From contig NC_006138.1 of NCBI RefSeq assembly GCF_000025945.1, forward strand, positions 2,400,001 through 2,432,000: a stretch of DNA of 32,000 bases, in the 5' to 3' direction. The stretch's first letter is position 1, and each line of letters begins with the position of its first letter. Of this stretch, positions 9,701 to 28,133 are shown piece after piece. The position numbers were made by a program, and so were the translations under genes. The notes under the pieces are model-generated. The model worked only from the letters and a program-made list of their open reading frames with translations. It did no database searches and had not been told where the DNA came from. The DNA comes from Desulfotalea psychrophila LSv54. GTDB taxonomy: Bacteria; Desulfobacterota; Desulfobulbia; Desulfobulbales; Desulfocapsaceae.

Positions 9701-12700
9701 TGGAGTTACAGTGCCACCATCGCCGATGGCACCACCTACCAGCTTAAGGTCAAAGAGACCGATGCCGCCGGCAATGAAAGTGCGGCCACCACCGACTTTG
9801 TCGTTGCAGGAGATACCTTCGCCCCGACAGCCAGTATTGATTTGGCCCTCCATACCGTTCAACTGGAAGCAATTGACAATCTCAGGGGCGATGACCACGC
9901 CCCTCAGGTCAGCGCTGTCGGTAACGCCGGTGAGTTTGTCGTCACCTGGCAGGGGCAGGATAGCGGGGGTGACACCAGCATTTTTGTGCAGAAATTCAAT
10001 GTCGATGGCAAGACCACGGGAGCCCCGGCACAACTGGAGGCGATTGGCAAGGTCGGGGGCGATGACGAATGCCCTCAAGTCAGCGCCGTCGGTAGCGCCG
10101 GTGAGTTTGTGGTGACCTGGTATGGGCAGGATAGCGCGGATGACTCCAGCATTTTTGTGCAGAAATTCAATGCCGATGGTACGACCCTGGGTAATGCCTC
10201 GGTACAACTGGAAGCGATTGGCAATGCCCGTGGCGCTGACTACTTCCCTCAAGTCAGCGCCGTCGGAAGCGCCGGTGAGTTTGTGGTGACCTGGTATGGG
10301 CAGGATAGTGATAGCGCGAATGACTTCAGTATTTTTGTGCAGAAATTCAATGCCGATGGCACGACCCTAGGTAATGCCCCGGTACAACTGGAAGCGATTG
10401 GCAAGGCCAGAGGCGCTGACGGCTACCCTCAAATCAGCGCCGTCGGTAGCGCCGGTGACTTTGTGGTGACCTGGCAGGGGCAGGATAGCGCGAATGACCC
10501 CAGCATTTTTGTCCAGAAGTTCAATGCCGATGGCAGGACCACGGGAGACCCGGTACAGTTGGAGGCGATTGGCAATGCCCGTGGCGCTGACTACTTCCCT
10601 CAAGTCAGCGCCGTCGGTAACGCCGGTGAGTTTGTAGTCACCTGGATGGGGAAGGATAGCGCGAATGACTTCAGTATTTTTGTGCAGAAATTCAATGCCG
10701 ATGGCACGACCCTGGGTAATGCCCCGGTACAACTGGAAGCGATTGGCAAGGCCAGAGGCGCTGACCACTACCCTCAAATCAGCGCCGTCGGTAGCGCCGG
10801 TGACTTTGTGGTGACCTGGCAGGGGAGTGATAGCGAGGGTGACTTCAGCATTTTTGTGCAGAAATTCAATGCTGGTGGCACGACCCTGAATAATGACCCG
10901 GTACAACTGGAAGCGATTGGCAAGGTCGGGGGCACGGACAGCAACCCTCAAATCAGCGCCGTCGGTAGCGACGGAGAGTTTGTGGTGACCTGGTATGGGC
11001 AGGATAGCGCGAATGACTTCAGTATTTTTGTGCAGAAATTCAATGCCGATGGCAGGACCACGGGAGACCCGGTACAACTGGAGGCGATTGGTAATCCCAG
11101 CGGCGCTGACTACATTCCTCAAATCAGCACCGTCGGTAGCGCCGGTGACTTTGTGGTGACCTGGCAGGGGAGTGATAGCGAGGGTGACGACAGCGTTTTT
11201 GTGCAGAAATTCAATGCCGATGGCACCCTGAATATGCCGCCCATCTTTACTGCGAGTGATAGCGTCCCAGTACAAAGCAGCGAAGTCGGCACGGCTTATC
11301 TGGTAAGTACCGATGTCACGGTCACCGACGTGGCCAGCATTACGGCTGCGGCAGATGGTCAGTGGAATCAGGTGGCAATTACAACGGCAGGCACCAACAC
11401 CGGTATGGCCACCACTGGGCTGGCTGATGGGATCTATTTTGTTTACAGTGCCGATGCCGCAGGCAACCTGTCGGCTGCGGCAGGCACCACAGTGACCATC
11501 GACAACACCGCCCCGACCGTATTGATCACCGACAATACCGACGGTACCGCCAACGGTCCTGTTACCTACACCTTTACCTTCAGCGAGGCGGTGACAGGTT
11601 TTACCGTTGAAGATGTGGTCGTGACCGGCGGAATTAAGGGCGCACTCACCGGCAGCGGCACGACCTATAATCTGGTCGTGACCCCTGACAGCTCGAGCAC
11701 CGCCGATATCGTCGTGAATGTGGCGGCCGATGTCGCGCAGGATGTGGCCGGTAATAACAATACCATTGCCGCCGAAAGTACCCAGTCCGTCGATACCGTC
11801 ATCCCAACCGTAGCTATCACCGACAATACCGACGGTACCACCACTGGGGATGTAACCTACACCTTTACCTTCAGCGAGGCGGTGACCGGTTTTGCCGCCA
11901 CTGATGTGGTCGTGACCGGCGGAACCAAGGGTGCACTCACCGGCAGCGGCACGACCTATAATCTGGTCGTGACCCCTGACAGCTCGAGTACCACCGATAT
12001 CGTCGTGAATGTGGCGGCGGATGTCGCGCAGGATGTGGCCGGCAATAACAATACCATTGCCGCCAAAAGTACCCAGTCCGTTGATACCGTCATCCCGACA
12101 GCCAGTATTGATTTGGTGACCCTCCCTGCCGTACAACTGGAAGCGATTGGCAAGGACGACGGCGGTGACTACTCCCCTCAAATAAGCGCCGTCGGTAGCG
12201 ACGGTGACTTTGTGGTCACTTGGGAAGGGCAGGAGAGTGCGGGGGAAGACAGCATTTTTGTCCAGAAATTCAATGCCGATGGCGTGACCACGGGAGTCCC
12301 GGTACAACTGGAGGCGATTGGCAATGCCACGGGCGATGACAGATGCCCTCAGGTCAGCGCCGTCGGCAGCGCCGGTGAGTTTGTGGTGACCTGGTATGGG
12401 CGGGATAGTGATAGCCCGGGTGACAATAGCATTTTTGTGCAGAAGTTCACTGCCAATGGCGTGATCACGGGAGACCCAGTACAACTGGAGGCGATTGGCA
12501 AAAAAGAGGGCAGTGACAACGCCCCTCAAGTCAGCGCCGTCGGTAGCGACGGTGACTTTGTGGTGACTTGGTTTGGGCAGGATAGCGCGAATAACATGAG
12601 CATTTTTGTGCAGAAATTCAATGCTGATGGCACGACCCCATCTCCGGTACAGCTGGAAGCGATTGGCAATACTACGGGCACGGACAACAACCCTCAAGTT

Positions 12701-14665: not shown

Positions 14666-14940
14666 CATTACCGTTGTGGTACTAAGCCAGGCCACGCCCA
14701 GCTTCGCCAGCGCTCGGTATCTTCCATCATCCGTTGCTGTGTCTGCTCAGTTAAGAGACGCAGCTTTCGGGCTTGCTCGATTGAAAACTGTCCTGCGTTT
14801 TCGAAGTACTCGCCATCCCGGGAGGGCAAAAGCCGGTGGATACTGTGGTGGAAACGCAGGAGCAGAATCGGCCTTAGCCGGATTAAGATTGGCCGCCTTG
14901 AGCAGGGCAGCAATCAGGAATTTACATTTATGGTATTGAT

Positions 14941-17610
14941 TTGAATTATATAGATATACTTCGTCAGCTCGCAGATCAACAGCAGTTCACCCTGCTCCAT
15001 CTCAACGCCCAGCGCTATCTGCAGGAATCGGCTGATGTGCAGGCCCTGCCCCTGCTGGCCCTGGCCCTGGCCCATCTGGGCGAGCGCAGTGAAGCCGAAG
15101 CCGTACTGGCCCAGATCGAGGCCTGTCTGGCCGACCTCGATCTGGATGCGCGGGTGGATCTGGCCGCCGTCTACTGCCTGTTGTGGCGCTCTGCTGAAGC
15201 CGTAGCCCTGCTCGAAGCGGCCCTGGCCATGAGCGACGATCATTCCCTGGCCCTGGCGCGTCTTGCCTGGTGCCGCATGCAGGAGGGTAACAGGGCTGAG
15301 GCCTGCATTCTCTACCGACGATCTGCTGAGCTAATGCCGGATCGCCTGCCGGTCTGGAGCGCCCTGGCCCGACTTTATCTGGAGGCAGGCGATTATCCGC
15401 CGGCCCAACAGGCCCTGGAGATGGCCATCGGCCGCTTCGAGCTGCTGGCTGCCAACCTGCCTGAGGTCGTCGCCGCGACCTTTATGGCCCAGTTTCGTGG
15501 GCTGCAGTTGGAGATTTGGCTGAGCACGGATGCCCTGGCCCAGGCCGATGCCTGGCTGGCCGAGCGTCGCCAGACCCTCCCGGAGGAGGAGTGGACGCAG
15601 CTGATTCTTGGCTATTCTACCCTGCTGGCAGGGCAAGAACGCCATGCCGAGGCGGAAGAGAGCCTGGGCAATGCCCTTAAACACTATCCGCAAAACCTTG
15701 CCCTGATCTCGCAGCTGGCAGAACTGACCCAGCTTCAGGGGCGCACCATACAGACGGTGCAGTTACTGCGCCGGGCAATTCGACTGGCCAAAGATCAGGA
15801 TAAACCGGAGGTGGGTCTGTGGGTGCGGCTCTCCGCTGCCTGCCTGCAGCAGATGGAGGATCAGGCAGGCAAGGCCGCAGAGAGGGCGGTGGAACTGGCC
15901 GAGGCGATGGTGGAGACGGAGGCAGTGCCGTTGCAAATGATCCGCCAGTTGCGCCTGCAGGCAAAAAATGCCCGGGCCCAGGTGGAAAGTCAGGCCCAGC
16001 ATTTCGATGAGGCCGAAACCCTGTTCCGGGAAATCCTCGAAGAGAACCCCTGGTTTGTGCCGGCCCTGCAGGGTTTGGGCCAGCAGCAGATGCAGCGCGG
16101 CAACCTCGACGAGGCGGTGGCGCTGTTCGAACGGATCAAAGAGATCGACCCGGCCAGGGGTTACTCAGCGCTGATTAATGCCCGTCGGTTCCCTGACGAT
16201 GACGACAGCCTAAGGCGAATGGAAAAGGTCGCCCGCCAGCCGAGCCTTGAGGGACCGGTCCGTTCCGGCCTGCTTCTGCAATTGGCCTCTGCCTGGGAAA
16301 AACGTAAAGAGTTCGACAGGGCCTTCGCTCTGGCGGTGGAGGCCAACGATTCGAGCAAAAAGCGGCTGCGCTACGACCCTAGAGCCCATCGCAATCAGTG
16401 TGCCCGCATTCGGGCAGGATTCAGCAGGTCACTCTATGAGCATCGGCCGGCCTCTGGCCTTGATTCCACCCTGCCGGTTTACGTTCTGGGGATGCCTCGT
16501 TCCGGCACCACCCTGGTTGAGCAGATTCTCGCCGGTCATAGCCAGATCTTTGGCGCAGGTGAACTCGGGGTGATCCCTCAGGTGGTGCAGGGCCTCAACC
16601 GCTGGGAACGACATGTCGGTTCCGGCCGCCACTATCCCGACGCGGTCGACGATCTCACCCCTCATGCCAGGGCTGGCATTGCCAACAATGTCCTCAAAGA
16701 GCTCCGGGAATATGCCCCCGAGGCAAGGCATGTGGTGGATAAACTGCCCCATAACTTTGAAAATATCGGCCTGATCAAGTTTCTCTTTCCGCAGGCCAAA
16801 ATCATCTCGGTGCGTCGCGACCCACGCGATATTGCCATCTCCAATTATTTTACCGACTATCAGGCCAAACACGGCGGCATGGGTTTTGCCTATGATCTGA
16901 CCAGCATCGGTGAGCAACTGGCCGATCATAACCTGCTCATGCATCATTGGCACCAGATCTTCCCCGGTGAAATTCTGGAGATCAATTACGAGGATGTGGT
17001 CGATGATCTCGAAGGCAGCGCTCGGAGGATGCTTGACTATATTGGGGTCGAGTGGGAGCCTTCGGTACTCAAATTCAACGAGCTGGAGCGTACCGTCAAA
17101 ACCGCCAGCGTCTGGCAGGTGCGGCAACCGATCTACAAAACCTCCAAGGCCAGGTGGATGCGTTATCAGGACCATCTGGCGCCGCTGATTCAGGGAACCA
17201 ATGCCAAAATCTGTCCCGATCCGATAGGGGATATGATTACCCTGCCGTTGCCGGGATTCTTAACCGATGGTGTTGAACTGTACCGCCAGGACGATCTCGA
17301 TGGCGCTGAGTTGAGTTTTAAGAAGATGTTACACCACAACCCCGAACACGCTGCCTGCAACTATATGGTGGGGCTGGTCTACTGTCGCAAGGGACATGTC
17401 GGAGAGGCGAGTCCCCTCCTGGAAAAGGCCCTGGAAAAGGCCCCCTGGCATAGAGAGTGGCGGGAAAACCTCGAAAGGGCTTACAGGCTTGTTGGCGATC
17501 AGGATAAACTTTTAGAATTACAAAATCGTTACCTTAAAAAAGATAAGACAGGGGATTGGTCTGACGACGAGACCCTGGCAGATTTCGAAATGTTGTTTAA
17601 GCAAAATTAA
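14941..17610 (+). CDS. TPR-repeat-flanked sulfotransferase. It has about 500 aa of N-terminal TPR-like helices, a PAPS-dependent sulfotransferase core and about 110 aa of C-terminal TPR. It appears cytoplasmic.
   Basis: The core carries VYVLGMPRSGTTLVEQILAGH (5'-PSB-type P-loop, PRSGTT at 16495-16512) and ISVRRDPRDIAIS (3'-PB-type motif, 16813-16830). Helical Ala/Leu-rich TPR-like repeats flank it on both sides. I see no hydrophobic N-terminus. The start is TTG at 14941, the first start codon after the in-frame stop at 14899-14901. An in-frame GTG at 15037 preceded by AGGAA is an alternative. Confidence 0.85.
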   Translation: MNYIDILRQLADQQQFTLLHLNAQRYLQESADVQALPLLALALAHLGERSEAEAVLAQIEACLADLDLDARVDLAAVYCLLWRSAEAVALLEAALAMSDDHSLALARLAWCRMQEGNRAEACILYRRSAELMPDRLPVWSALARLYLEAGDYPPAQQALEMAIGRFELLAANLPEVVAATFMAQFRGLQLEIWLSTDALAQADAWLAERRQTLPEEEWTQLILGYSTLLAGQERHAEAEESLGNALKHYPQNLALISQLAELTQLQGRTIQTVQLLRRAIRLAKDQDKPEVGLWVRLSAACLQQMEDQAGKAAERAVELAEAMVETEAVPLQMIRQLRLQAKNARAQVESQAQHFDEAETLFREILEENPWFVPALQGLGQQQMQRGNLDEAVALFERIKEIDPARGYSALINARRFPDDDDSLRRMEKVARQPSLEGPVRSGLLLQLASAWEKRKEFDRAFALAVEANDSSKKRLRYDPRAHRNQCARIRAGFSRSLYEHRPASGLDSTLPVYVLGMPRSGTTLVEQILAGHSQIFGAGELGVIPQVVQGLNRWERHVGSGRHYPDAVDDLTPHARAGIANNVLKELREYAPEARHVVDKLPHNFENIGLIKFLFPQAKIISVRRDPRDIAISNYFTDYQAKHGGMGFAYDLTSIGEQLADHNLLMHHWHQIFPGEILEINYEDVVDDLEGSARRMLDYIGVEWEPSVLKFNELERTVKTASVWQVRQPIYKTSKARWMRYQDHLAPLIQGTNAKICPDPIGDMITLPLPGFLTDGVELYRQDDLDGAELSFKKMLHHNPEHAACNYMVGLVYCRKGHVGEASPLLEKALEKAPWHREWRENLERAYRLVGDQDKLLELQNRYLKKDKTGDWSDDETLADFEMLFKQN

Positions 17611-17630: not shown

Positions 17631-18971
17631 ATGAATCTTCAGCGCCGGCCTCATTTTTGTAGGGCCATTTTGTTATTTTCTCTCTGCACCTCCATCCTGC
17701 TCTCGCCACTGTTTTTTAGGCAGCGCTGTTATGCAGACACACAGACCCTGGCGGAAAGCGATGCCCTGACAGTTGGAGCGAAGGAGCAAGCGGTGGTGGG
17801 TTTAGCTGCTGCCCTACAGGCCACCATGAGTTACAATCCGGCAATAAAGGGGAAACGCGCCGAGCTCAACTCGTATGAGGCTAGAATCGACGGTGCCAAG
17901 GCGGGGCGATATCCATCTCTTTCTGCTCAGGCCAATAATGTTAATAATTACCTGGGCCAGTATGAACAGGGCATAGTGAGTATCCAGCAACCTCTGTGGG
18001 CTTTTGGGAAAATAGATAACGAGATTGACCGGGCAGAGGCCAACTATCACTCTGAGCAACTTGGACTATTACAGGTACAGCGGCAACTCATTGAAAATAC
18101 AGCTGCGGCCTACGCCCGTATAGAGGGAATCGAGAAGCGCGCCACAGTGGCTCGGCTGAATATCAGAGAGCACGAAAAACTTTATAATCGAATTAAACGA
18201 CGCGAAGAAGGCCACATGGCTTCCGAGGCTGATATGCGCCTGGCATACTCTCGTCTTATTCAGGCCAAGACCCAATTGATGCGTATTGGCGGTGAAAGAG
18301 ATATCGCCATTTCTAATCTACGCTTATTGACTCAAGCCGATGTTGCCGTTGATGCCGTTGTTGATAAAGATCTGACAGAATTACCGATGATAGCCGAGGT
18401 TGAAGATCGGGCCATAAAAAACAGTGCTGATGTCAGATACAAGAAGATGCGTTTAGACGTGGTTGCCTATGATGTCAAAAGAGAGAAAATCGCCTCGCTA
18501 CCAACCCTGTCTTGCCGGGTTGACTACGAATTTCTCGATAAACCGGAAAGCGGCGATAGAACCAGTTATGGCCTGGTACTCGAAGGCAATTTAGAAGGTA
18601 TGGGCTTTACCACTATTAGCCGGGTAAAAGGTGCCACATCCCGCGAAATAGCTGCACGGGAAGATGTGGACCTTACCACCAATGATGTGCTTAATCGGGT
18701 CCGTTCTCTGATGCTCGATCGCGCCATGCAGAGCTCTCTGAAAAATGCTCAAAGGGAATCGGTGCAGATTGTTGAATCAACCATGGCCTCCTTTATGCGG
18801 CAGTATGAATCGGGGCGAAAATCGTGGATTGATGTACTCAATACCCAACGTGAACTCACTGAATTGCGCTATCAGTTGGCCCAAATAGAAAATGATTGGC
18901 TCACCTCATCCCTACGCGTTTTGGCCGTGACGGGTGAGCTTGATCAACTGGCAGGAATTGAATCTCTATGA
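17631..18971 (+). CDS. TolC-family outer-membrane factor of the type I secretion system.
   Basis: The product is 446 aa with a signal-like N-terminus (ILLFSLCTSILLSPLFF). Its size and two-repeat coiled-coil-rich composition are typical of the family. The stop overlaps the ABC gene start (ATGA at 18968-18971). The OMP-ABC-MFP gene order matches lapEBC-type loci. Confidence 0.8.
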   Translation: MNLQRRPHFCRAILLFSLCTSILLSPLFFRQRCYADTQTLAESDALTVGAKEQAVVGLAAALQATMSYNPAIKGKRAELNSYEARIDGAKAGRYPSLSAQANNVNNYLGQYEQGIVSIQQPLWAFGKIDNEIDRAEANYHSEQLGLLQVQRQLIENTAAAYARIEGIEKRATVARLNIREHEKLYNRIKRREEGHMASEADMRLAYSRLIQAKTQLMRIGGERDIAISNLRLLTQADVAVDAVVDKDLTELPMIAEVEDRAIKNSADVRYKKMRLDVVAYDVKREKIASLPTLSCRVDYEFLDKPESGDRTSYGLVLEGNLEGMGFTTISRVKGATSREIAAREDVDLTTNDVLNRVRSLMLDRAMQSSLKNAQRESVQIVESTMASFMRQYESGRKSWIDVLNTQRELTELRYQLAQIENDWLTSSLRVLAVTGELDQLAGIESL

Positions 18972-21241
18972 TTAAAAATATACTAAAAACAGATAGTCCA
19001 GCTCGGCAGAAAGCATCTGAGAGGGGATGCGCTGAGATTGATCCCAGTTTTTTACAGCAAGATCTACCTGCAGGGGTCTTAAAACAACTTCTTGATCGCC
19101 TGGATATACCGGTGCAGACAGGTGCCCTTACTCATGCCTGTGAACAGGCACAAAAAGAGATGACCGAGGCATCGCCCAGCCAGCGGATTAACTTCATTTT
19201 TCATGCCTTACAGATCAGAGGCGTGCAGGTGGCTCAGCTACGCTGGACCCGTTTTGATCAGCGACGTCTCCCTGCGATGCTCTGCCATGGTGGCAGTTGG
19301 AAGTTAATCGAGCGCGGCCAGAGCGGCCAGTTAATTCTGACGGATGAAATGGGCGAGACATGCCAGTGCTGCGAAGCGGATTTGAGTGATGTCTTTGTCC
19401 TGTGGTTACATGTTCAGCAGAAGAGAGAGACTGGCCCCTCCTTAAAGGGCAACCTTGCTGCCCGTCTGCTCCTACGGGAGATGTTTAAAGATCGTCGCTG
19501 GCTTGTCAACGTCACTATTTCCACCATAATCATTAATGTTTTGGCGATTACCACCTCACTCTTTGCCCTGCAGGTCTATGATCGGGTAGTACCGACCCTG
19601 GCCTACGCGACCCTCTATACCCTGGTGGCTGGCATGGCGATTATGGTCAGTCTGGACTGGCTCCTCAAAACCCTGCGCGCCCGCATCCTCGACAGTGTCT
19701 CCTGTGCCGTCGACAGGAGTGTATCACAACAGGTATTTGACCACGTAATGCGTCTACAGCTCGATATTCGACCACGCAGCCTCGGAACTCTGGCGGCACA
19801 GGTCGGTGGACTTGACTCGGTTAAACAGTTTTTTACCTCCGGGGTGATTTTTGCCCTGATCGACATGCCCTTTGCCCTGATGTTTATTGCCTTTATCGCC
19901 ATTATTGGTGGTCCCATTGGCTGGGTATACCTGCTCTTGCTTCCAGTGGCGGCAACATTGGGTTGGATAACCCAAAAGCGCCTGCGCCGTTTAATGCGCG
20001 AGCAGATGATACGCTCCAACGAACGTCAGGGACTACTGGTGGATGCCATCCAAGGCAGTGAATCAATTCGTGCCAACAACGCCACCTGGCGTTTTTCTGA
20101 ACAGTGGCGTGAAATAACCACCTCTATCTCTCGTTACAATATACAGCAAAAGGCGATCAGCAATCTGGCGACGGTCTCAACGGGTAGCCTGTCAACCATA
20201 GCCTATGTTACGGCAATTGTTGTTGGGGTCGGCCAGATCGAGGCTGGTAACCTGACCATGGGCGCACTCATTGCCTGTAGTATTCTCGGTGGCCGGGTAA
20301 TTGCCCCCGTTGCCCAAAGTGTGCAGTATCTTGCCCAGTGGCAGAATATTGCCCAGGCACTGCAGATGGTCAATCAGGTACTGATCCTTAAGACAGATCG
20401 TCGTCCGGACCAGGAGCTGTTGATGCCCGACGAACGGCCTGCAACAGTTGAGCTGGAAGGGGTCCGTTTCTGCTATCCCGAGTCCCCCATACAGCAACTG
20501 AATATCGCTAAACTCAGCTTTAAGGCCGGTGACCGGGTGGCCCTGATCGGTAACGTTGGTTCCGGTAAATCGACACTGCTTAAGGTATTGGCCGGTCTCT
20601 ATGCACCAGCCGAAGGACGTGTCCGCTTAGGCAATGCCGATCTTTGGGAGATGGATCCTCATCTGGTAGCAGAACATATCGGCTACCTGCCACAGAGTGT
20701 CCATCTATTCAAGGGCACCCTACGCAGCAACCTGACACTCTCCGGTGCCGTCAGTGATTCCCACCTATTGCATATCGCCCATGAACTGGGGATTGATAGC
20801 ATTGCAGCCGAAAATCCCCGCAGCATGGAGCTACCCATCAGCGAAGGGGGCGAGGGGCTGTCCGGTGGTCAACGGCAGTTGGTTGGTCTGGCCCGGGTCT
20901 TCCTGGCCCAACCCACAATATGGTTACTGGATGAACCAACGGCTTCATTGGACAGCAACAGTGAACAGCAGGTGCTGGCAGCTATTGCCTCTCATATTAA
21001 GGCCGATGATATTCTCATACTATCAACCCATCGACCGGCACTTATCACCCAGCTGACGAACCGGGTTGTGGTGATGCAGCGCGGTGAGATAAGCGCCGAT
21101 GGCCCACCAGAAGTGGTACTACCACGACTGATGGGAAAAAGGACGAACCAGGCCCATGGTGCCAGAGAAGTACAGGTGCGTATGCCGATGCCTGCTGCCG
21201 TATATTCCGGAAACAACAGGGGGGCATATAATGTTATCTAA
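18968..21241 (+). CDS. Type I secretion ABC permease/ATPase (HlyB/LssB-like) with an N-terminal C39-like domain that shows no recognisable catalytic Cys motif.
   Basis: Motifs seen are Walker A GNVGSGKST (20549-20575), the ABC signature LSGGQRQ and Walker B IWLLDEPTASLD, with a six-helix TMD region. The first ~150 aa resemble a peptidase-like fold, but I saw no C39 catalytic Cys motif of the kind found in bacteriocin/RaxB exporters. Confidence 0.93.
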   Translation: MIKNILKTDSPARQKASERGCAEIDPSFLQQDLPAGVLKQLLDRLDIPVQTGALTHACEQAQKEMTEASPSQRINFIFHALQIRGVQVAQLRWTRFDQRRLPAMLCHGGSWKLIERGQSGQLILTDEMGETCQCCEADLSDVFVLWLHVQQKRETGPSLKGNLAARLLLREMFKDRRWLVNVTISTIIINVLAITTSLFALQVYDRVVPTLAYATLYTLVAGMAIMVSLDWLLKTLRARILDSVSCAVDRSVSQQVFDHVMRLQLDIRPRSLGTLAAQVGGLDSVKQFFTSGVIFALIDMPFALMFIAFIAIIGGPIGWVYLLLLPVAATLGWITQKRLRRLMREQMIRSNERQGLLVDAIQGSESIRANNATWRFSEQWREITTSISRYNIQQKAISNLATVSTGSLSTIAYVTAIVVGVGQIEAGNLTMGALIACSILGGRVIAPVAQSVQYLAQWQNIAQALQMVNQVLILKTDRRPDQELLMPDERPATVELEGVRFCYPESPIQQLNIAKLSFKAGDRVALIGNVGSGKSTLLKVLAGLYAPAEGRVRLGNADLWEMDPHLVAEHIGYLPQSVHLFKGTLRSNLTLSGAVSDSHLLHIAHELGIDSIAAENPRSMELPISEGGEGLSGGQRQLVGLARVFLAQPTIWLLDEPTASLDSNSEQQVLAAIASHIKADDILILSTHRPALITQLTNRVVVMQRGEISADGPPEVVLPRLMGKRTNQAHGAREVQVRMPMPAAVYSGNNRGAYNVI

Positions 21242-22445
21242 CAATCCTTTAGCGACAAATGAAATAGACAACGACAGGGCAATAGCTCGCCTTGAGAGTT
21301 ACCATCGCGGTCGTTACTCACTGGTCTTATGGCTATTGCTCATCGCCTTTGTTATCGTCATCCTCTGGGCATCTGTCTTTCAGTTGAACCAGGTTGCACG
21401 TGCCAGGGGCGAGGTGATTGCCAGTAGTCGGGTGCAGATTATTCAGTCGGTGGATGGTGGCGTGCTGGCGGAGTTGAACGTCAGGGAGGGCGACCAGGTA
21501 AAACCGGGGCAGGTACTGGCACGTCTCGACCAGACTCGATCTGGAGCTTCGGTGAAGGAGATCGAAGCGCGCCTGTCTGCCCTGAAGGCCAAGGCAACTC
21601 GTTTGCGGGCGGAGGTGACCGAGGTGGATAAACTTATCTTTCCTGAAGAGTTACTTAAACATCCTGAAACCGTGGCAGTGGAACGCGCTCTGTTCCAACA
21701 ACGACGCACCGGACTAAAAGAGGAGCTCAAAACCCTGAAGGTGGCGGTCAAGCTGGCCCAGGAAGAGGTGACCCTGCTGACCAATCTGGAGCGATCCGGC
21801 GATGTGAATCGTTCCGAGGTAATTCGTACCAAACGGGCACTCAATGATGCTAAATCCAAGTTAATCGTGCGCAAAAACCGTCATTTTGAAGAGGCGAGTA
21901 CCGAGCTGATTAAAGCTGAAGATGGTATTGCCCAGAATGAACAGATCTTCGCCCAACGAAAACAACAGCTGGAGGACAGTGTTTTTACCGCCCTGGTTCC
22001 CGGTATCGTTAAAAATGTCCGGGTGACGACCGTGGGCGGGGTACTGCGTGCCGGTGAGGAGTTGATGCAGATCATCCCCGTCGGTGATGATCTTATTATT
22101 GAAGCCAAGGTAAGTCCCACCGATATTGCCCTGGTACGTCCCGGTCTGGTAGCGACCATTCGTTTTGACCCCTTTGACTATACCATCTTTGGCGGAGTGA
22201 CCGGTAAGGTTGTCTACGTCAGTGCCGATACCCTTAAAGAGAAAACTGCCCGGGGCGAAGATATTTACTACCGTGTCCATGTCATTACAGAGATGACGCC
22301 CGTTACCACCACAACTGGCAAGGTACTCGATATCCTACCGGGGATGACCGCTCAGCTCGATATTCGTACCGGTGAGCGTAGTGTCCTTGAATATATGTTG
22401 AAACCATTGCGTAAGACTGTCAGTAACGCCTTCGGTGAACGTTAA
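21231..22445 (+). CDS. HlyD-family periplasmic adaptor (membrane fusion protein) of the T1SS.
   Basis: The product has one N-terminal TM segment (LVLWLLLIAFVIVILWASVF), a lipoyl-like motif GGVLAELNVREGDQVKPGQVLARLD, a long coiled coil and a C-terminal beta-barrel. I chose ATG 21231 (preceded by aacagggggg) over the track's 21156, which lies deep inside the ABC gene. Confidence 0.9.
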   Translation: MLSNNPLATNEIDNDRAIARLESYHRGRYSLVLWLLLIAFVIVILWASVFQLNQVARARGEVIASSRVQIIQSVDGGVLAELNVREGDQVKPGQVLARLDQTRSGASVKEIEARLSALKAKATRLRAEVTEVDKLIFPEELLKHPETVAVERALFQQRRTGLKEELKTLKVAVKLAQEEVTLLTNLERSGDVNRSEVIRTKRALNDAKSKLIVRKNRHFEEASTELIKAEDGIAQNEQIFAQRKQQLEDSVFTALVPGIVKNVRVTTVGGVLRAGEELMQIIPVGDDLIIEAKVSPTDIALVRPGLVATIRFDPFDYTIFGGVTGKVVYVSADTLKEKTARGEDIYYRVHVITEMTPVTTTTGKVLDILPGMTAQLDIRTGERSVLEYMLKPLRKTVSNAFGER

Positions 22446-22448
22446 GAG

Positions 22449-24158
22449 ATGCCTTTTCAAAAAAACATAAATTGCAAATATCCAGAGACTTTGCTGGTCG
22501 ATCCTGAGCAGATAGAGGGGTTAAAGGCAGAGGCCCTGGATCTTATCAGCCTGACTCTTTCTGTCGAGCAAATTTGCGATCTTGAGCTATTGTTAAATCG
22601 GGGTTTCTATCCTCTTGTTGCTTATATGGACCAGGCCTCTTATCTCTCTGTGCTAAAAAACATGAGACTAACGGATGGAACTCTTTGGCCCACCCCCATT
22701 TCTCTGGCTGTCTCGAAAAACAGGGTCGCTGGCTTAACAATAGGGCAGCGCCTAGCACTTAATGATCAGGAAGGTTTTCTTATCGCAATCCTGACCATTA
22801 GTGACATTTGGCAAGCAGATACAAGGCTGGAGGCCAAGGCCGTTTATGGTACCACTGATTCGGCCCGGCATCCTGGAGTACGAAAATTGTACGATTGCTC
22901 CGGCGATTACTATCTTGCCGGTTCTCTTGAGGGTATTTCTTTACCTGTTCATTATGATTTCCAATCTCTACGTCTAAGTCCTGCCGAGACTGTTCAACGT
23001 TTCATGACGAAGGGCTGGCAAAGGGTCGTTGGTTTTCAGACCGATGAGTATTTGCACTATGGTCACCATAAAATGATTATGGCCGCAGCGCAGGAGATAG
23101 GCGCAGCCGTTTTTATCCAAGCCCAAATTAACTGTCCCGGGGAAATCACCCATTACACCCATGTACGCTGTCATCAGGCCTTCACCAAGCTCTTTCCCAT
23201 AAATATGGCGGGACTTGGCTTGTTTGCTCTTCCGGCAAAAAAGACAGGACCGAGGGAGGCTCTTTTACAGGCGATAATCAAGAAAAATTTTGGTTGCACT
23301 CATTTCATGGTTGCCCCTGACCATGCAGACCCCTTTGCCGTCATGACTGATGAAAAGGCACTGTTTTATCCTCGGGGTGAGGCGCAAAAGCTCGTCGCTT
23401 ATTATGAAAAAGAGACCGAGATAACAATGATTCCTCAACGAGGGGTAGGATACTGCAAAAAGGATAAAAAATATATTTTTCAGGGGGCCAAAGGGGCTGA
23501 GAACAGTTCATTAATCGATTCGAAGGGATTAATGGGTCGATTAAAAAGAGAAGAAGAAATCCCTCCCTGGTTCACCTGTCCGAAGATTGTCCAAGAAATT
23601 CGCCATGATTTCCTCCCAAGGTCTGGGCAGGGCTTTACCATTTTCATGACAGGGCTTTCCGGAGCAGGGAAATCAACAATTGCCAAGGTATTACAGGTAA
23701 AGTTTGCGGAGATGCGTGAGCGGCCTGTAACACTGCTGGATGGTGATATTGTGCGACTCAATCTCTCCTCTGAACTTTCATTTTCCCAAAAAGACAGAAA
23801 TCTCAATGTCACCCGTATTGGTTTTGTCGCAGGTGAGATAACTAAAAATGGTGGTATAGCCCTATGTGCGCCCATCGCCCCCTATGAAGAGTCCCGCCAA
23901 GTAAACAGACGCTTAATTTCAAATTATGGAGGCTATATCGAAGTATATGTAGCAACACCCCTTCAGGTTTGTGAGCAGCGTGACAGCAAGGGACTCTATG
24001 CCAAGGCCCGATCCGGCCGGATCAAGAATGTAACAGGGATAACAGATCCGTATATTCCCCCGACGAATCCTGAAATTACCATCGATACCACAAACATTAA
24101 CCCCATGGATGCAGCAGAGAAGATACTGCTATATCTGAAGGGGGAAGGATACCTGTAA
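22449..24158 (+). CDS. Fusion of an ATP-sulfurylase-like N-terminal domain with an APS kinase (CysC-type) C-terminal domain. It is PAPS-synthase-like.
   Basis: The kinase half carries FMTGLSGAGKST (P-loop 23652-23678), LLDGDIVR, FSQKDRNLNVTRIGFVA and CEQRDSKGLYAKARSG.IKNVTGI. The sulfurylase half carries GPREALLQAIIKKNFGCTHFMV, but its active-site motifs are non-canonical (see findings). Confidence 0.9.
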   Translation: MPFQKNINCKYPETLLVDPEQIEGLKAEALDLISLTLSVEQICDLELLLNRGFYPLVAYMDQASYLSVLKNMRLTDGTLWPTPISLAVSKNRVAGLTIGQRLALNDQEGFLIAILTISDIWQADTRLEAKAVYGTTDSARHPGVRKLYDCSGDYYLAGSLEGISLPVHYDFQSLRLSPAETVQRFMTKGWQRVVGFQTDEYLHYGHHKMIMAAAQEIGAAVFIQAQINCPGEITHYTHVRCHQAFTKLFPINMAGLGLFALPAKKTGPREALLQAIIKKNFGCTHFMVAPDHADPFAVMTDEKALFYPRGEAQKLVAYYEKETEITMIPQRGVGYCKKDKKYIFQGAKGAENSSLIDSKGLMGRLKREEEIPPWFTCPKIVQEIRHDFLPRSGQGFTIFMTGLSGAGKSTIAKVLQVKFAEMRERPVTLLDGDIVRLNLSSELSFSQKDRNLNVTRIGFVAGEITKNGGIALCAPIAPYEESRQVNRRLISNYGGYIEVYVATPLQVCEQRDSKGLYAKARSGRIKNVTGITDPYIPPTNPEITIDTTNINPMDAAEKILLYLKGEGYL

Positions 24159-24652
24159 ATGTCACCTGCCAAAGAGAAGTGCCGTCTCATGTTTAATCCT
24201 GCCAACGTGGTCTGCCCCCATCGAACAGTCTCTTCATCGGGTTTATTTTATGTGCTGTTTTTTCTCGAATGCATCAGAAAAAATGGCATGGGTTATTCCC
24301 TGGTAGTACTTTTTTGCCTTTTGGCAATTACCGCTCCCTGTCGGACTGCCTAGCAGGTTCGATCTCTGTCTGGATTGGTGTAGCGATAATTTTTTTCCTA
24401 TCAGAACTTTATCAGCAACTACATCCTCTCTATTTGTGTAATCCCCTTGGCGCATCTATTTTCTCCAGTGTTTGGCTGGTTTTTTAATCTTTCCCGCTGT
24501 CTTGGATAGTTAAGTAATATCAATTAAATAAAAACATGTGCCTCTTGGTAAATGCTTTTTCCTCGCAAGCGAATTACCCCTTTGCCTTGACCTTCTCTCT
24601 TTTTTCCTATGTTATTATGCATGAGGCAATAAAATCTTATGGAGGTAGAGGA

Positions 24653-25027
24653 ATGAAAAAAATATACAGACTTGTTAGCAAAAGTCATTGTGATGCCGTT
24701 CTTAGAACAAGAAAGATTCCGCAATCGGACTGCTGGCAGGTGAGCATGGAGACTAAACGGACACAAATAGATGATGAGCAGGGTCAAACTGCAGAAGGAG
24801 ATTCTATCTATAACCCAGAAGAAGTTATGGCTCTGCTAGGTAACAATGAGCTACAGCATGGGCAGGAGGCCCAGGCCATAATTTCTTTTTTATTGGCAAG
24901 AAACTGTATTGAGTATACGGGATTCGGTGACGATCCTAAGCCCTGCTCGAAGGGTAGTAAAGAGGAAAATAGTTCAGCGCTAAAGGATGAGATAGAGGGG
25001 CAGGACGATGTCAAATATGCCCATTAA
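24653..25027 (+). CDS. Hypothetical acidic 124-aa protein.
   Basis: ATG 24653 sits 7 nt after a GGAGG (24641-24645). The track's upstream start at 24536 lacks an RBS. I recognise no motifs. Confidence 0.45.
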   Translation: MKKIYRLVSKSHCDAVLRTRKIPQSDCWQVSMETKRTQIDDEQGQTAEGDSIYNPEEVMALLGNNELQHGQEAQAIISFLLARNCIEYTGFGDDPKPCSKGSKEENSSALKDEIEGQDDVKYAH

Positions 25028-25216
25028 ATTTGCAATGAGCAGTTATAATGATCTTCTTCTTAGCAGATTTCAGCAAATTGAGGCAAGAGAATAAGCCTAA
25101 AAGCTAGGCTTACAGCTATTACCCAAACCAGGCAGATAAAGACGGATCAGAGGCAGGTCCGAGAGAGAAGGTGTGGGCCTCTGCTTCAAATGAATCTTAA
25201 CCACCAACATGGGTAA

Positions 25217-26047
25217 ATGAAACTTAAAGCACACTACCGAATCGTCTTAATATATCTGCTATTGGGCTTTTTTTGGATATTAATCTCTGATGCAGTCGTA
25301 AATAGCCTCTTTGAGGATAGGGCAGATATCATCTTTGCCGAGAATATTAAGGGTTGGTTCTTTATTGCCTTCAACGGCTTGCTCCTCTTCTTTCTTATAA
25401 AAAGAGAGATTAATGCCATAAAGGCGATAAATATTAAACTGATGGAGAGTTATGAGCAGACTATCATTGGCTGGATGCATGTTACTGACCTTCGCCATAG
25501 GGAAACAAAGGATCATACTGAGCGGGTAACGAAGATGACAGTTGCGCTGGCAAAGTTCTCTGGTATCAGCAAAAAAGAGGAACTGAAGAACATTGAACGG
25601 GGAGCAATGCTGCACGATGTGGGTAAAATTGGTATTCCCGATGCCATTTTAATTAAGCCAGGAAAGCTGAATGAAGAGGAGTGGAAACAGATAAAGAAGC
25701 ACCCGCAGATAGCGCATGATATTATATCTAATATTGCCTTTCTCAGACCCTGCATAGACATTCCATATTCTCATCATGAGAAGTGGGATGGTAGTGGTTA
25801 CCCGCTGGGTATAGGCGGAGATGAAATACCGATGGCGGCCAGATATTTCGCCATTGTTGATGTATGGGATGCCCTTATCCACCCCCGCATATACAAAGCG
25901 GCATGGACGGAAGAAGAGGTGTTAGCATATATTCAGGAGCAGTCAGGGAAACACTTTGATCCTGATATTGTAGAGTTATTCTTAGAAAACTATGAACAGA
26001 TAAGGGGTGATTTAATCTATCCAGAATGGGGGCCCCCATCGCCATAG
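25217..26047 (+). CDS. Membrane-anchored HD-GYP domain protein, a putative c-di-GMP phosphodiesterase.
   Basis: Two N-terminal hydrophobic helices are followed by HDVGKIGIPDAIL and HHEKWDGSGYP, the HD and GYP signatures. Confidence 0.88.
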   Translation: MKLKAHYRIVLIYLLLGFFWILISDAVVNSLFEDRADIIFAENIKGWFFIAFNGLLLFFLIKREINAIKAINIKLMESYEQTIIGWMHVTDLRHRETKDHTERVTKMTVALAKFSGISKKEELKNIERGAMLHDVGKIGIPDAILIKPGKLNEEEWKQIKKHPQIAHDIISNIAFLRPCIDIPYSHHEKWDGSGYPLGIGGDEIPMAARYFAIVDVWDALIHPRIYKAAWTEEEVLAYIQEQSGKHFDPDIVELFLENYEQIRGDLIYPEWGPPSP

Positions 26048-26073
26048 ATGATTGGGTCTGATGCCTCTACCTT

Positions 26074-26317
26074 GCCCTCTTTAAACAGATACCAGTTCTC
26101 CTCATCCTCGTCCGCAATCCAGCCAAGTCCGAAAAAGCCAATTCCTGAGATATTCTTTAATTTCAGGCTATCGTGGACATCTTTTTCCAGCTTTTGTCTG
26201 CTGGGTTTTTTAAAGTACGGCATTCCCGTAAATGCGGCCACCGCAACCCAAATTGCAACATTCGGATCAATTTTCCTTAAACGTGAAATCTACCTCTCTG
26301 CCTTTTGACTGATCAGT
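26074..26317 (-). pseudogene. Detached duplicate of the 3' end of the GH-A-like gene at 26850-27842.
   Basis: The translation FTGMPYFKKPSRQKLEKDVHDSLKLKNISGIGFFGLGWIADEDEENWYLFKEG matches the C-terminus of the 330-aa protein. Nothing corresponding to the first ~250 codons lies upstream of it. Confidence 0.75.
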
Positions 26318-26631
26318 CCTGTACCTTCTCCTTAGCTCTCTTCACCGTTATTGGGCGGCCAACTGGTGGCTTCGGCCTTCACCTATCGGCATGGACATTG
26401 TTTTCTGACGTCTCTTTTGCCCAAAAATCCAATTTAATTATTAGTAGAATAGTTCAGCTAAACTTAAAAAAGGAGTCTTCTCAGTGTTCTGAAATAATAA
26501 AAGCACAGGCCAAAAAATGTATGCTCTGTGGGTAATATTTGTTTCATGGGCGGTTCTGCACGCAAGAACGGGTAAATAGTTTTTGTTAAAACAACTATTT
26601 ACCCTCTTGAAAAAAAATAGCTACTTACCCC

Positions 26632-26660
26632 TTGCAAAAGAATTCTCAACCGGGTATAAG
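26632..26660 (+). promoter_or_regulatory. Sigma70-type promoter for tRNA-His.
   Basis: TTGCAA (26632-26637), a 17-nt spacer and TATAAG (26655-26660) lie about 37 nt upstream of the tRNA 5' end. Confidence 0.55.
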
Positions 26661-26696
26661 AGACTCGCACTTTGCAACAACAAAAAATAAACATGT

Positions 26697-26774
26697 GGTG
26701 GGCGTGGCTCAGTTGGTTAGAGCACCTGGTTGTGACCCAGGAAGTCGGGGGTTCGAGTCCCCTCGCTCACCCCA
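26697..26774 (+). tRNA. tRNA-His (anticodon GUG) with an encoded G-1 and an encoded CCA.
   Basis: I folded the cloverleaf by hand. The acceptor stem is GTGGGCG/CGCTCAC, with G-1 (26697) opposite discriminator C. The D arm is GCTC-AGTTGGTTA-GAGC. The anticodon arm is CCTGG-TTGTGAC-CCAGG, with GTG at 26732-26734. The T arm is GGGGG-TTCGAGT-CCCCT, followed by the 3' CCA. Confidence 0.95.
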
Positions 26775-26785
26775 TTTTTTATAAG

Positions 26786-26822
26786 GGGTTTCAGCTTTGA
26801 AAAAAGTTGAAACCCTTTTTTT
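26786..26822 (+). terminator. Intrinsic terminator after tRNA-His.
   Basis: GGGTTTCAGCTTT-GAAA-AAAGTTGAAACCC forms a 13-bp stem with one G-T pair and a GNRA-type loop. It is followed by TTTTTTTGTTT. Confidence 0.85.
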
Positions 26823-26849
26823 GTTTCATCCCCAAGAATCTCGGTCCAG

Positions 26850-27842
26850 TCACCTGTTTGACCTTATCTCTGTTTTAATTACCTGCCAGAGATCTCTGCC
26901 CTCTTTAAACAGATACCAGTTCTCCTCATGATCATCCTCGTCTGCAATCCAGCCAAGTCCGAAAAAGCCAATTCCTGAGATATTCTTTAATTTCAGGCTA
27001 TCGAGGATATCTTTTTCCAGCTTTTGTCTGCTGGGTTTTTTAAAGTACGGCATTCCTGCAAATGCTGCCACTGCAACCCAAATTTCGACATCTGGATCAA
27101 TTTTCCTTAAACGGGAGATATACCTCTCTGCCTTTTGACTGATCAGTATCTCATTATCTGGATCGTAGCCATCATATACCCAGTTTGTATAGAGGTTGAG
27201 CATTATTATTTCTGTCAGATCGCTTTCAATAAATCTATTAAGATCAAAGTCATCATCGTCCAAATCCCAGTTTCTCATTCTCAACATCAGCGGCCTGACA
27301 GGGTCTATTGCCCTGATATCCTTCCTTACCTTCTGTAGTTGATTCTTCTGTATTGAATAATCCTCAATCCACTCTACCCCCCCTTCGGGATGTTCCTGGG
27401 GGACGGGCATGTTTTCGCCAAATTCATTACAAATATCATAGGCATAGACTGCAGGGTGCACCCTTATCTTTTTTATCCAGCTCTGTGCCTTCTCTTTTTG
27501 CCAGATGGGTTTCTGATTTTTTTTGTGGACTCCCGAATCATAGCCCCATGCTGTCTCGGAAAAACCTCCATCCATGATGACCCTGAGGCCGGCCTTCAAT
27601 GCCCTGTCCAGGAACCTGAAGACTTCATCAGCTGGCTCCTCCATTCCCCATTCAGTTGTTATAAGGGTTATGCCACCCTCTCTCAGTTGTAAAAGATCTT
27701 CATAGGGCGTGTATAGGCCAACATCTTTCATTATGAAATGAATCCGTTTTTGGGAGTAGTTGGCCTTATAGGCTTCAATTACAAAGGCCGCAAGAACTGC
27801 CAGAGATAAGACAAAGAGTACGATATATATCTGTTTTTTCAT
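26850..27842 (-). CDS. Membrane-anchored or secreted TIM-barrel glycoside-hydrolase-like protein (clan GH-A / cellulase-like).
   Basis: The N-terminal hydrophobic segment is IYIVLFVLSLAVLAAFVI. The motif YDICNEFGEN resembles the conserved Asn-Glu acid/base motif of clan GH-A. The family assignment is tentative. Confidence 0.7.
   Translation of the reverse strand: MKKQIYIVLFVLSLAVLAAFVIEAYKANYSQKRIHFIMKDVGLYTPYEDLLQLREGGITLITTEWGMEEPADEVFRFLDRALKAGLRVIMDGGFSETAWGYDSGVHKKNQKPIWQKEKAQSWIKKIRVHPAVYAYDICNEFGENMPVPQEHPEGGVEWIEDYSIQKNQLQKVRKDIRAIDPVRPLMLRMRNWDLDDDDFDLNRFIESDLTEIIMLNLYTNWVYDGYDPDNEILISQKAERYISRLRKIDPDVEIWVAVAAFAGMPYFKKPSRQKLEKDILDSLKLKNISGIGFFGLGWIADEDDHEENWYLFKEGRDLWQVIKTEIRSNR
26898..27147 (+). 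repeat. Right copy of a ~245-bp direct repeat (left copy at 26074-26317) bracketing tRNA-His.
   Basis: My manual alignment gives about 14 substitutions plus one 6-nt indel (atgatc) across ~244 aligned positions, in the same orientation. Confidence 0.9.
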
Positions 27843-28133
27843 AACTCAGTCTCTCTCTTCTCTCTGGAATTCCGTGAGCCACCATGGCACCGGCCCGGGG
27901 CAGATTTATCTCAACACCCAGTATAGCAGGCGTGGAGATCAACTACCAGAGAACAAGGGCCACATTTCGGGTAGATTATGCCTGCAAACAGGATCTTACC
28001 ATTGTAAACGGGCAGAGATTAGGGCAGGATAGAAGTTAGAGACCTTTTTATTGTTTCTCCTCAGAGGATGATGAAGGGCATTGAGATTACTCATTAAAAA
28101 GAGGAGGTAAGCACAGGGGTGCCATAAAACATT

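Follow-up and report, generated by a model that had tools for sequence, protein, structure and literature searches.

A gene at positions 22449-24158 of the plus strand, in a 32,000-nucleotide window of Desulfotalea psychrophila LSv54 (NC_006138.1, positions 2,400,001 to 2,432,000), encodes a fusion of an ATP-sulfurylase-like part with an adenosine 5'-phosphosulfate (APS) kinase. Sequence comparisons indicate that this protein (P0001) is quite probably a monofunctional two-domain APS kinase, composed of a sulfurylase-like domain (SLD) and a kinase domain. The C-terminal domain would phosphorylate APS to 3'-phosphoadenosine 5'-phosphosulfate (PAPS), and the PUA-like and sulfurylase-fold part would retain its structure and make no APS. 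APS would be supplied by the separate dissimilatory ATP sulfurylase, the flux through which is high in this sulfate reducer. PAPS would then be consumed by a TPR-sulfotransferase that is encoded four genes upstream in what reads as the same type I secretion operon. The dead SLD may serve as an oligomerisation or kinase-supporting scaffold, as has been proposed for the enzymes of Thiobacillus denitrificans and Entamoeba; judged by this analogy, such a role is the most likely one. An earlier note on this DNA, made without database searches, had already suggested an APS kinase with a pseudo-sulfurylase domain, and the loss of the active-site Arg and Asn residues together with the results of curated family models supports that proposal.

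The sulfurylase-like domain has lost its active-site residues

The gene, its domains and the motifs on which the comparison was based are as follows.

22449-24158, plus strand: SLD-APS kinase gene, 569 aa (list of open reading frames (ORFs) and translation; Pfam PF14306, PF01747, PF01583)
22491-22937, plus strand: PUA-like N-terminal domain, residues 15-163 (Pfam PUA_2, PF14306, 5.7e-40)
22965-23606, plus strand: ATP-sulfurylase-fold domain, the SLD, residues 173-386 (Pfam PF01747, 7e-56, 189 bits)
23031-23069, plus strand: degenerate QxRN/HxxH motif, GFQTDEYLHYGHH, where canonical enzymes carry (A)FQTRNPMHRAHR (translation, phmmer alignment)
23310-23330, plus strand: degenerate GRD loop, VAPDHAD, where canonical enzymes carry VGRDHAG (translation, phmmer alignment)
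23514-23534, plus strand: remnant of the ISGTxxR loop, IDSKGLM, with the canonical S, G, T and R all replaced (columns compared with 43 canonical fused enzymes)
23628-24086, plus strand: APS-kinase domain, residues 394-546, intact (Pfam PF01583, 1.2e-55, 188 bits)
23652-23678, plus strand: P-loop of the kinase, GLSGAGKST (motif comparison)
23736-23747, plus strand: LDGD motif of the kinase (motif comparison)

The two enzymatic domains were matched from end to end, PF01747 over profile positions 2-211 of 212 and PF01583 over positions 1-152 of 152. The alignment register was taken from phmmer searches against Protein Data Bank (PDB) sequences and was checked against 1i2d, 2gks and 3cr8. In a high-confidence block, VVGFQTDEYLHYGHH was paired with VVAFQTRNPMHRAHR of the Penicillium chrysogenum ATP sulfurylase 1i2d, and FMVAPDHADP was paired with FIVGRDHAGP of the same protein in a single ungapped high-confidence block. 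FQTRNPMHRAH has thus become FQTDEYLHYGH. In P. chrysogenum numbering, which is used throughout, the substitutions are R199D, N200E, P201Y, R204Y, G291A, R292P and G296D, and further losses are R363 to M, D234 to E, R240 to H, M265 to A and H276 to Q. Retained are H203 and H206, so that HxxH reads H-Y-G-H with its Arg replaced, as well as D293-H294-A295 and the fold markers GPREA (residues 267-271) and KNFGCTHF (residues 279-286).

The earlier note had read the two degenerate motifs, the exchange of Arg-Asn for Asp-Glu with both histidines kept, and the conservation of GPREA and KNFGCTHF directly from the sequence. The translations are exactly as given there, the phmmer register agrees on the exchanges and on the fold markers, and the canonical Arg, Asn and Arg were not recovered in the profile-checked register. 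The PFR motif of yeast ATP sulfurylase was also considered as a criterion and was dropped, as P. chrysogenum itself reads EFQ at this place.

In yeast ATP sulfurylase, Gln195, Thr196, Arg197, Asn198, His204, Asp232, Arg290, His292-Ala293 and Arg362 surround sulfate, APS and pyrophosphate, and mutagenesis cited in the same source found that alterations of HRAH or VGRDHAG eliminate or lower the sulfurylase activity and leave the kinase activity in place (PMC6607087). Every arginine on this contact list is missing from the D. psychrophila protein. R199, N200, R204, R292 and R363, the residues that hold sulfate, the alpha-phosphate and pyrophosphate, are lost, and the SLD is therefore presumably unable to make APS. 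According to the alignment, two acidic residues would occupy the place where sulfate and the alpha-phosphate bind in active enzymes.

The 120 closest homologues were aligned with 43 canonical fused enzymes. In the N-terminal half, the canonical group has about 60 columns with a conservation of at least 85%, and about 20 of them differed in the query clade. The differing columns all cluster in or next to active-site elements, namely QxRN, HxxH, the mobile loop, GRD and ISGTxxR. In QxRN/HxxH the clade carries Q197H (the D. psychrophila protein keeps Q), R199D, N200E and P201Y; in the mobile loop G228, T230, D234 and R240 are changed, and elsewhere M265 and H276. The GRD loop has G291A and a variable position 292, and the ISGTxxR loop has G359S and a variable position 360. 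Retained are the fold markers GPREA, N282, G284 and H287 as well as the prolines and glycines of the PUA-like domain.

An AlphaFold2 model, built from 44 sequences of the clade and used at the fold level, had predicted local distance difference test (pLDDT) values of about 85-95 over the N-terminal 390 residues, with values mostly of 80-97 in the PUA-like domain. Foldseek placed the model on full-length 1i2d, 2gks and 3cr8; for the truncated yeast ATP sulfurylase 1r6x, the TM-score (TMt) was 0.86 with a root mean square deviation of 3.1 Å over 383 columns. The modelling proposed in the earlier note thus returned a confident sulfurylase fold. Because the model matches sulfurylase structures and the motifs are lost, the fold of the SLD appears to be intact and only its chemistry gone.

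The kinase domain is intact

GLSGAGKST, LDGD and the remaining kinase motifs are all present, as the earlier note had stated, and the full-length Pfam match is accompanied by a score of 179.2 bits against the APS kinase model TIGR00455 (apsK), above its cut-off of 138.7. When the kinase domain alone was compared with the PDB, the best match was the T. denitrificans APS kinase 3cr8 (223 bits, 62% identity), followed by the Entamoeba histolytica APS kinase 23vk (189 bits). These top two PDB matches are the two experimentally studied kinases with a dead SLD.

Curated family models and the bifunctional name

Three curated models were used to assign the protein. Apart from TIGR00455, which it passes, these are TIGR00339, the equivalog-domain model for Sat (sopT), and NF004040, the model for bifunctional sulfate adenylyltransferase/adenylylsulfate kinase. 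The D. psychrophila protein fails TIGR00339 (259.6 bits, cut-off 322.95) and passes NF004040 (821 bits, cut-off 669). The canonical fused representatives P0122, P0123 and P0129 lie above the cut-offs of both models, with TIGR00339 scores of 430-444 bits. Three degenerate representatives, P0005 (314.8 bits), P0127 of the T. denitrificans clade (296 bits) and P0121 (215 bits), fail TIGR00339 and pass NF004040, P0127 with as many as 797 bits on NF004040. In the cases tested, the TIGR00339 cut-off cleanly splits degenerate from canonical fused enzymes. Because P0005, P0121 and P0127 all lie above the NF004040 cut-off, neither membership in this family nor its name is proof of bifunctionality.

The naming of NF004040 is a systematic source of over-annotation. 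It labels the D. psychrophila protein and hundreds of its relatives as bifunctional, and a correction of the annotation is warranted. Where metabolic reconstructions of sulfate-reducing and sulfur-oxidising organisms treat such proteins as an additional ATP sulfurylase, or take them for an assimilatory PAPS pathway, they are probably in error.

Distribution of the degenerate fusion and relaxed constraint on its SLD

The 119 closest homologues retrieved, which are 59-67% identical to the query, are all degenerate in the same way. Their named sources, Desulfocastanea, Desulfosediminicola, Desulforhopalus, Desulfopila and Desulfotalea, all belong to the Desulfobulbales. The consensus of the clade is GFHT[DE][ED]YLHCAHR and HFMVA-x-DHADP, and the position of the former R292 is hypervariable, with E, D, S, A, P, N, G, K, V or Q. 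The 150 best-matching representatives of clusters at 50% identity include about 90 that combine a degenerate SLD with an intact kinase, and about 40 that combine a canonical sulfurylase with an intact kinase; catalytic residues of the sulfurylase are missing from about two thirds of the 150. The canonical enzymes are united in one supported clade in a tree of 86 full-length sequences. With 99% support, the query clade (7 rows) is a group of its own, and a split with 96% support divides it from the clade of 3cr8. An origin of the degeneracy independent of that in T. denitrificans was considered and was not adopted: at least four label changes are needed overall, and the supported branches force only one.

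The ratio of the mean pairwise divergence of the SLD to that of the kinase domain was 1.03 for canonical fused enzymes, 2.12 for degenerate representatives and 2.76 for the query clade, in groups that were defined by few motif columns and consist of related, not independent sequences. The SLD is thus under relaxed constraint relative to the kinase domain. Within the clade, the mean identity is 90% for the kinase domain and 73% for the SLD; the latter value indicates purifying selection, as would be expected for a structural or regulatory role. Compared with the members of its clade, the D. psychrophila protein is only 51% identical in the SLD and 82% in the kinase. An acceleration of the SLD alone was rejected as an explanation, since both domains are faster by about 1.8-fold and the whole gene evolves more quickly in this genus.

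Two unusual arrangements were observed among the relatives. In one member of the family, at L011 (G012:C31:37500-43500), positions 2130-3831 of the minus strand, the fusion is represented by two overlapping ORFs next to GDP-sugar biosynthesis genes, one for the SLD (356 aa) and one for the kinase (242 aa); either the halves are naturally separate there, or a frameshift or an assembly error has split the gene. P0215, a 50%-identity cluster representative of 908 aa and of the canonical Sat/CysC type, contains an insertion of about 340 aa in the P-loop between GK and ST. The insertion starts with Cys (CLAPET...) and ends with ...THN before S, and by its sequence carries the signature of an intein.

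Genome content and operon

The genome (G000; 3.66 Mb, 3 contigs, 100% complete) contains a second PF01747 gene. It encodes a canonical Sat of 425 aa with LQLRNPMHRSH and IGRDHAG and is located at about 1.645 Mb (G000:C1). AprA (934 bits) and DsrA (563 bits) are also present. PF01507 had no match in the genome, and therefore neither CysD nor CysH, the PAPS reductase, is encoded. The protein studied here contains the one genuine APS-kinase domain of the genome. The earlier note had named a search for a canonical sat as a check, which thus had a positive outcome, and had envisaged a dissimilatory Sat/Apr pathway as the source of APS and a sulfotransferase as the user of the product; the gene content fits this view.

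The genes upstream of the SLD-APS kinase gene, together with which they read as one operon, are the following.

14941-17610, plus strand: TPR-flanked sulfotransferase of 889 aa, with which the operon begins (Pfam Sulfotransfer_3, 8.6e-47)
17631-18971, plus strand: OEP/TolC-like type I secretion gene (Pfam OEP)
18968-21241, plus strand: ABC transporter gene (Pfam ABC_tran/ABC_membrane)
21156-22445, plus strand: HlyD-family gene (Pfam HlyD_3)

The start codon of the kinase gene lies 3 nt past the stop codon of the HlyD-family gene, and the sulfotransferase is the sole match to PF13469 or PF00685 genome-wide. Because the single APS kinase and the single sulfotransferase are found in one operon and a PAPS reductase is missing, PAPS is apparently made for that sulfation only. 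A dedication of PAPS to the sulfation step of the operon supports the hypothesis of a sulfation-coupled secretion.

The same order of five genes is found in a genome of the same genus (G009, L010, G009:C9:26000-45500, positions 7712-16977). Three of the five pairs were compared: the two sulfotransferases share 56% identity overall and 83% in their catalytic part, the ABC transporters 48% and the SLD-APS kinases 60%. In the window, two giant ORFs (4-5709 and 6773-14665) lie on the same strand directly upstream of the sulfotransferase and secretion operon. The frame of the former is open to the 5' edge of the window, and the gene may begin farther upstream. In G009, two ORFs of about 430 aa are found in their place upstream of the sulfotransferase. 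It is plausible that the giant ORFs encode the substrates of secretion and sulfation. Upstream of the kinase gene the G+C content is 0.50-0.58; it drops to 0.47 within the gene and further, to 0.43-0.44, over the next 4 kb (positions 22001-28000 of the window).

The gene of the closest homologue (P0002, 67% identical) is the last one of a polysaccharide cluster with a PF00685 sulfotransferase, and another homologue stands alone. When 60 genomes of the same family were surveyed, the fusion was present in about 30, a stand-alone CysC of about 200 aa was the only APS kinase in about 16, and in about 14 no APS kinase was found. A canonical Sat of about 430 aa is encoded in nearly all of these genomes, and the TPR-sulfotransferase was found only in D. 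psychrophila, in G009 and, more distantly, in G008. A literature search on the Desulfotalea version of the SLD-APS kinase yielded nothing specific.

Alternative explanations

Several observations do not sit easily with a monofunctional kinase whose SLD is a plain scaffold. In the AlphaFold2 model the kinase domain has low confidence, with pLDDT values below 50 for residues 432-490 and 525-534; the likely reason is the shallow, low-diversity alignment of 44 sequences, in which the kinase is about 90% identical, and not disorder. PF00459, the family of inositol monophosphatase and CysQ, was unmatched in the genome and present in 14 of 14 controls, a search that did not extend to a DHH phosphatase of the NrnA type. 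Without a 3'-phosphoadenosine 5'-phosphate (PAP) phosphatase of the CysQ family, the PAP-recycling half of the PAPS cycle is unaccounted for. Because of the 96% split from the 3cr8 clade, the hexamer and scaffold properties of the T. denitrificans enzyme may not transfer. Lastly, the SLD is far better preserved than that of T. denitrificans (189 bits with PF01747), conservation in the clade reaches 90% or more for both HxxH histidines, D-H-A and GPREA, and most of the 120 clade members carry acidic residues at positions 199 and 200. The preserved pocket and the acidic pair hint that selection acts on the pocket for more than a mere scaffold.

In an alternative reading, the dead pocket would not belong to an inert scaffold but would bind ATP, APS, PAPS or another effector, as a regulatory or channelling site that would tune the kinase or capture dissimilatory APS. 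In the fungal enzyme, with the halves reversed, a dead kinase domain is bound by PAPS as an allosteric effector. The PUA-like domain is likewise at least 90% conserved at a mean SLD identity in the clade of about 73%, the acidic pair is kept in nearly all clade members while position 292 drifts freely, the fold and the pocket-forming elements were modelled with high confidence, and the SLD of the Entamoeba enzyme measurably enhances kinase activity (bioRxiv 10.64898/2026.04.02.716029). However, the arginines that hold phosphosulfate and pyrophosphate are all gone and two acidic residues stand instead, which disfavours anionic nucleotides in the canonical pose, and the rate of evolution of the SLD is 2.8 times that of the kinase domain. 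In addition, clade-wide conservation of 95% or more is found in 41% of all SLD columns, so that conservation of the active-site remnants is unexceptional and was discarded as proof of function. A regulatory site of this kind is therefore judged to be unlikely, if worth keeping in mind. The same holds for its more specific form, in which the pocket of the Desulfobulbales was re-purposed as a sensor or as a docking or channelling site that would couple PAPS synthesis to the dissimilatory APS pool; if true, this would be the mirror image of the allostery by PAPS in fungal ATP sulfurylase.

A genuinely bifunctional PAPS synthase with a variant active site, as the name of NF004040 implies, is a very improbable reading of the protein. 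The score with this model, the active Aquifex bifunctional enzyme among the top PDB matches and the retained HxxH histidines and D-H-A speak for it. Against it stand the missing R199, N200, R204, R292 and R363, the failure with TIGR00339, the presence of a canonical Sat in the genome, and the fact that single motif changes kill or reduce the activity (mutagenesis cited in PMC6607087); moreover, NF004040 also accepts relatives of the experimentally inactive T. denitrificans type such as P0127. An altered anion specificity of the sulfurylase, which the earlier note had offered as an alternative, is unlikely because the replacement residues are acidic. We also regard it as hardly credible that the SLD is a nucleotidylyltransferase with a changed acceptor, in which HxGH is kept and the acidic site would accommodate a neutral or cationic acceptor. 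H-Y-G-H of the D. psychrophila protein indeed has the classical HxGH form and the acidic pair is conserved in the clade, but most clade members read HCAH and not HxGH, the arginines of the GRD loop and of ISGTxxR, which hold the leaving pyrophosphate, are lost, the gene context points to no candidate acceptor, and the evolution of the SLD is relaxed. A monofunctional APS kinase with a structurally retained SLD remains the explanation that we favour.

Comparison with known two-domain enzymes

APS kinases with a dead SLD are already established as a kind, and what remains of value here is the correction of the annotation and a possible role of the well-conserved dead domain. The earlier note was wrong in citing only a fusion degenerate in the opposite sense, the fungal one, since the enzymes of T. 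denitrificans (3cr8) and E. histolytica are degenerate in the same sense as the D. psychrophila protein.

The closest parallel is the T. denitrificans protein Tbd_0210. Like the D. psychrophila protein, it consists of a PUA-like, a sulfurylase-like and an APS kinase domain, its SLD is without catalytic residues and its kinase is intact. Both organisms have a separate ATP sulfurylase, which is functional in T. denitrificans and canonical by sequence in D. psychrophila, and both fusions are automatically annotated as 'bifunctional'. Gay, Segel and Fisher reportedly described the T. denitrificans protein in 2009 as a hexameric two-domain APS kinase, and the PDB title of 3cr8 is "Hexameric APS kinase". 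A dead SLD joined to a kinase is also what a 2026 preprint, in the part in which it cites this work, ascribes to Tbd_0210. The two proteins differ in their motifs, WQARQPMHRAQ and GGEH in T. denitrificans in contrast to FQTDEYLHYGH and VAPDHAD in D. psychrophila. Identity between their SLDs is as low as 22%, and the SLD of Tbd_0210 has a deletion around query residues 124-153.

In the E. histolytica APS kinase (23vk), an inactive SLD is fused to an active kinase, and the SLD is reported to enhance the kinase (bioRxiv 10.64898/2026.04.02.716029). The Entamoeba SLD is shorter, is without the substrate-binding loop and forms a flexible dimer, whereas the loop region and the linker of the D. psychrophila protein have their full length. 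The bifunctional enzyme of Aquifex aeolicus (2gks) has the same domain order and length, aligns over the full length and, like the D. psychrophila protein, lies above the NF004040 cut-off. However, it retains FQTRNPMHRVH and VGRDHAS, and canonical NF004040 members pass TIGR00339; neither is true for the D. psychrophila protein.

The best overall PDB match was the ATP sulfurylase of P. chrysogenum (1i2d/1m8p), with 410 bits and 40% identity from end to end. Both the fungal enzyme and the D. psychrophila protein are fusions with one dead half, but the halves are opposite ones. The fungal enzyme has an active sulfurylase and a kinase-like domain with degenerate motifs (GYMNSGKDA in the P-loop, and LLGD); the D. 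psychrophila protein would represent the reverse, with a kinase that is intact by its motifs and a sulfurylase half that appears to be dead.

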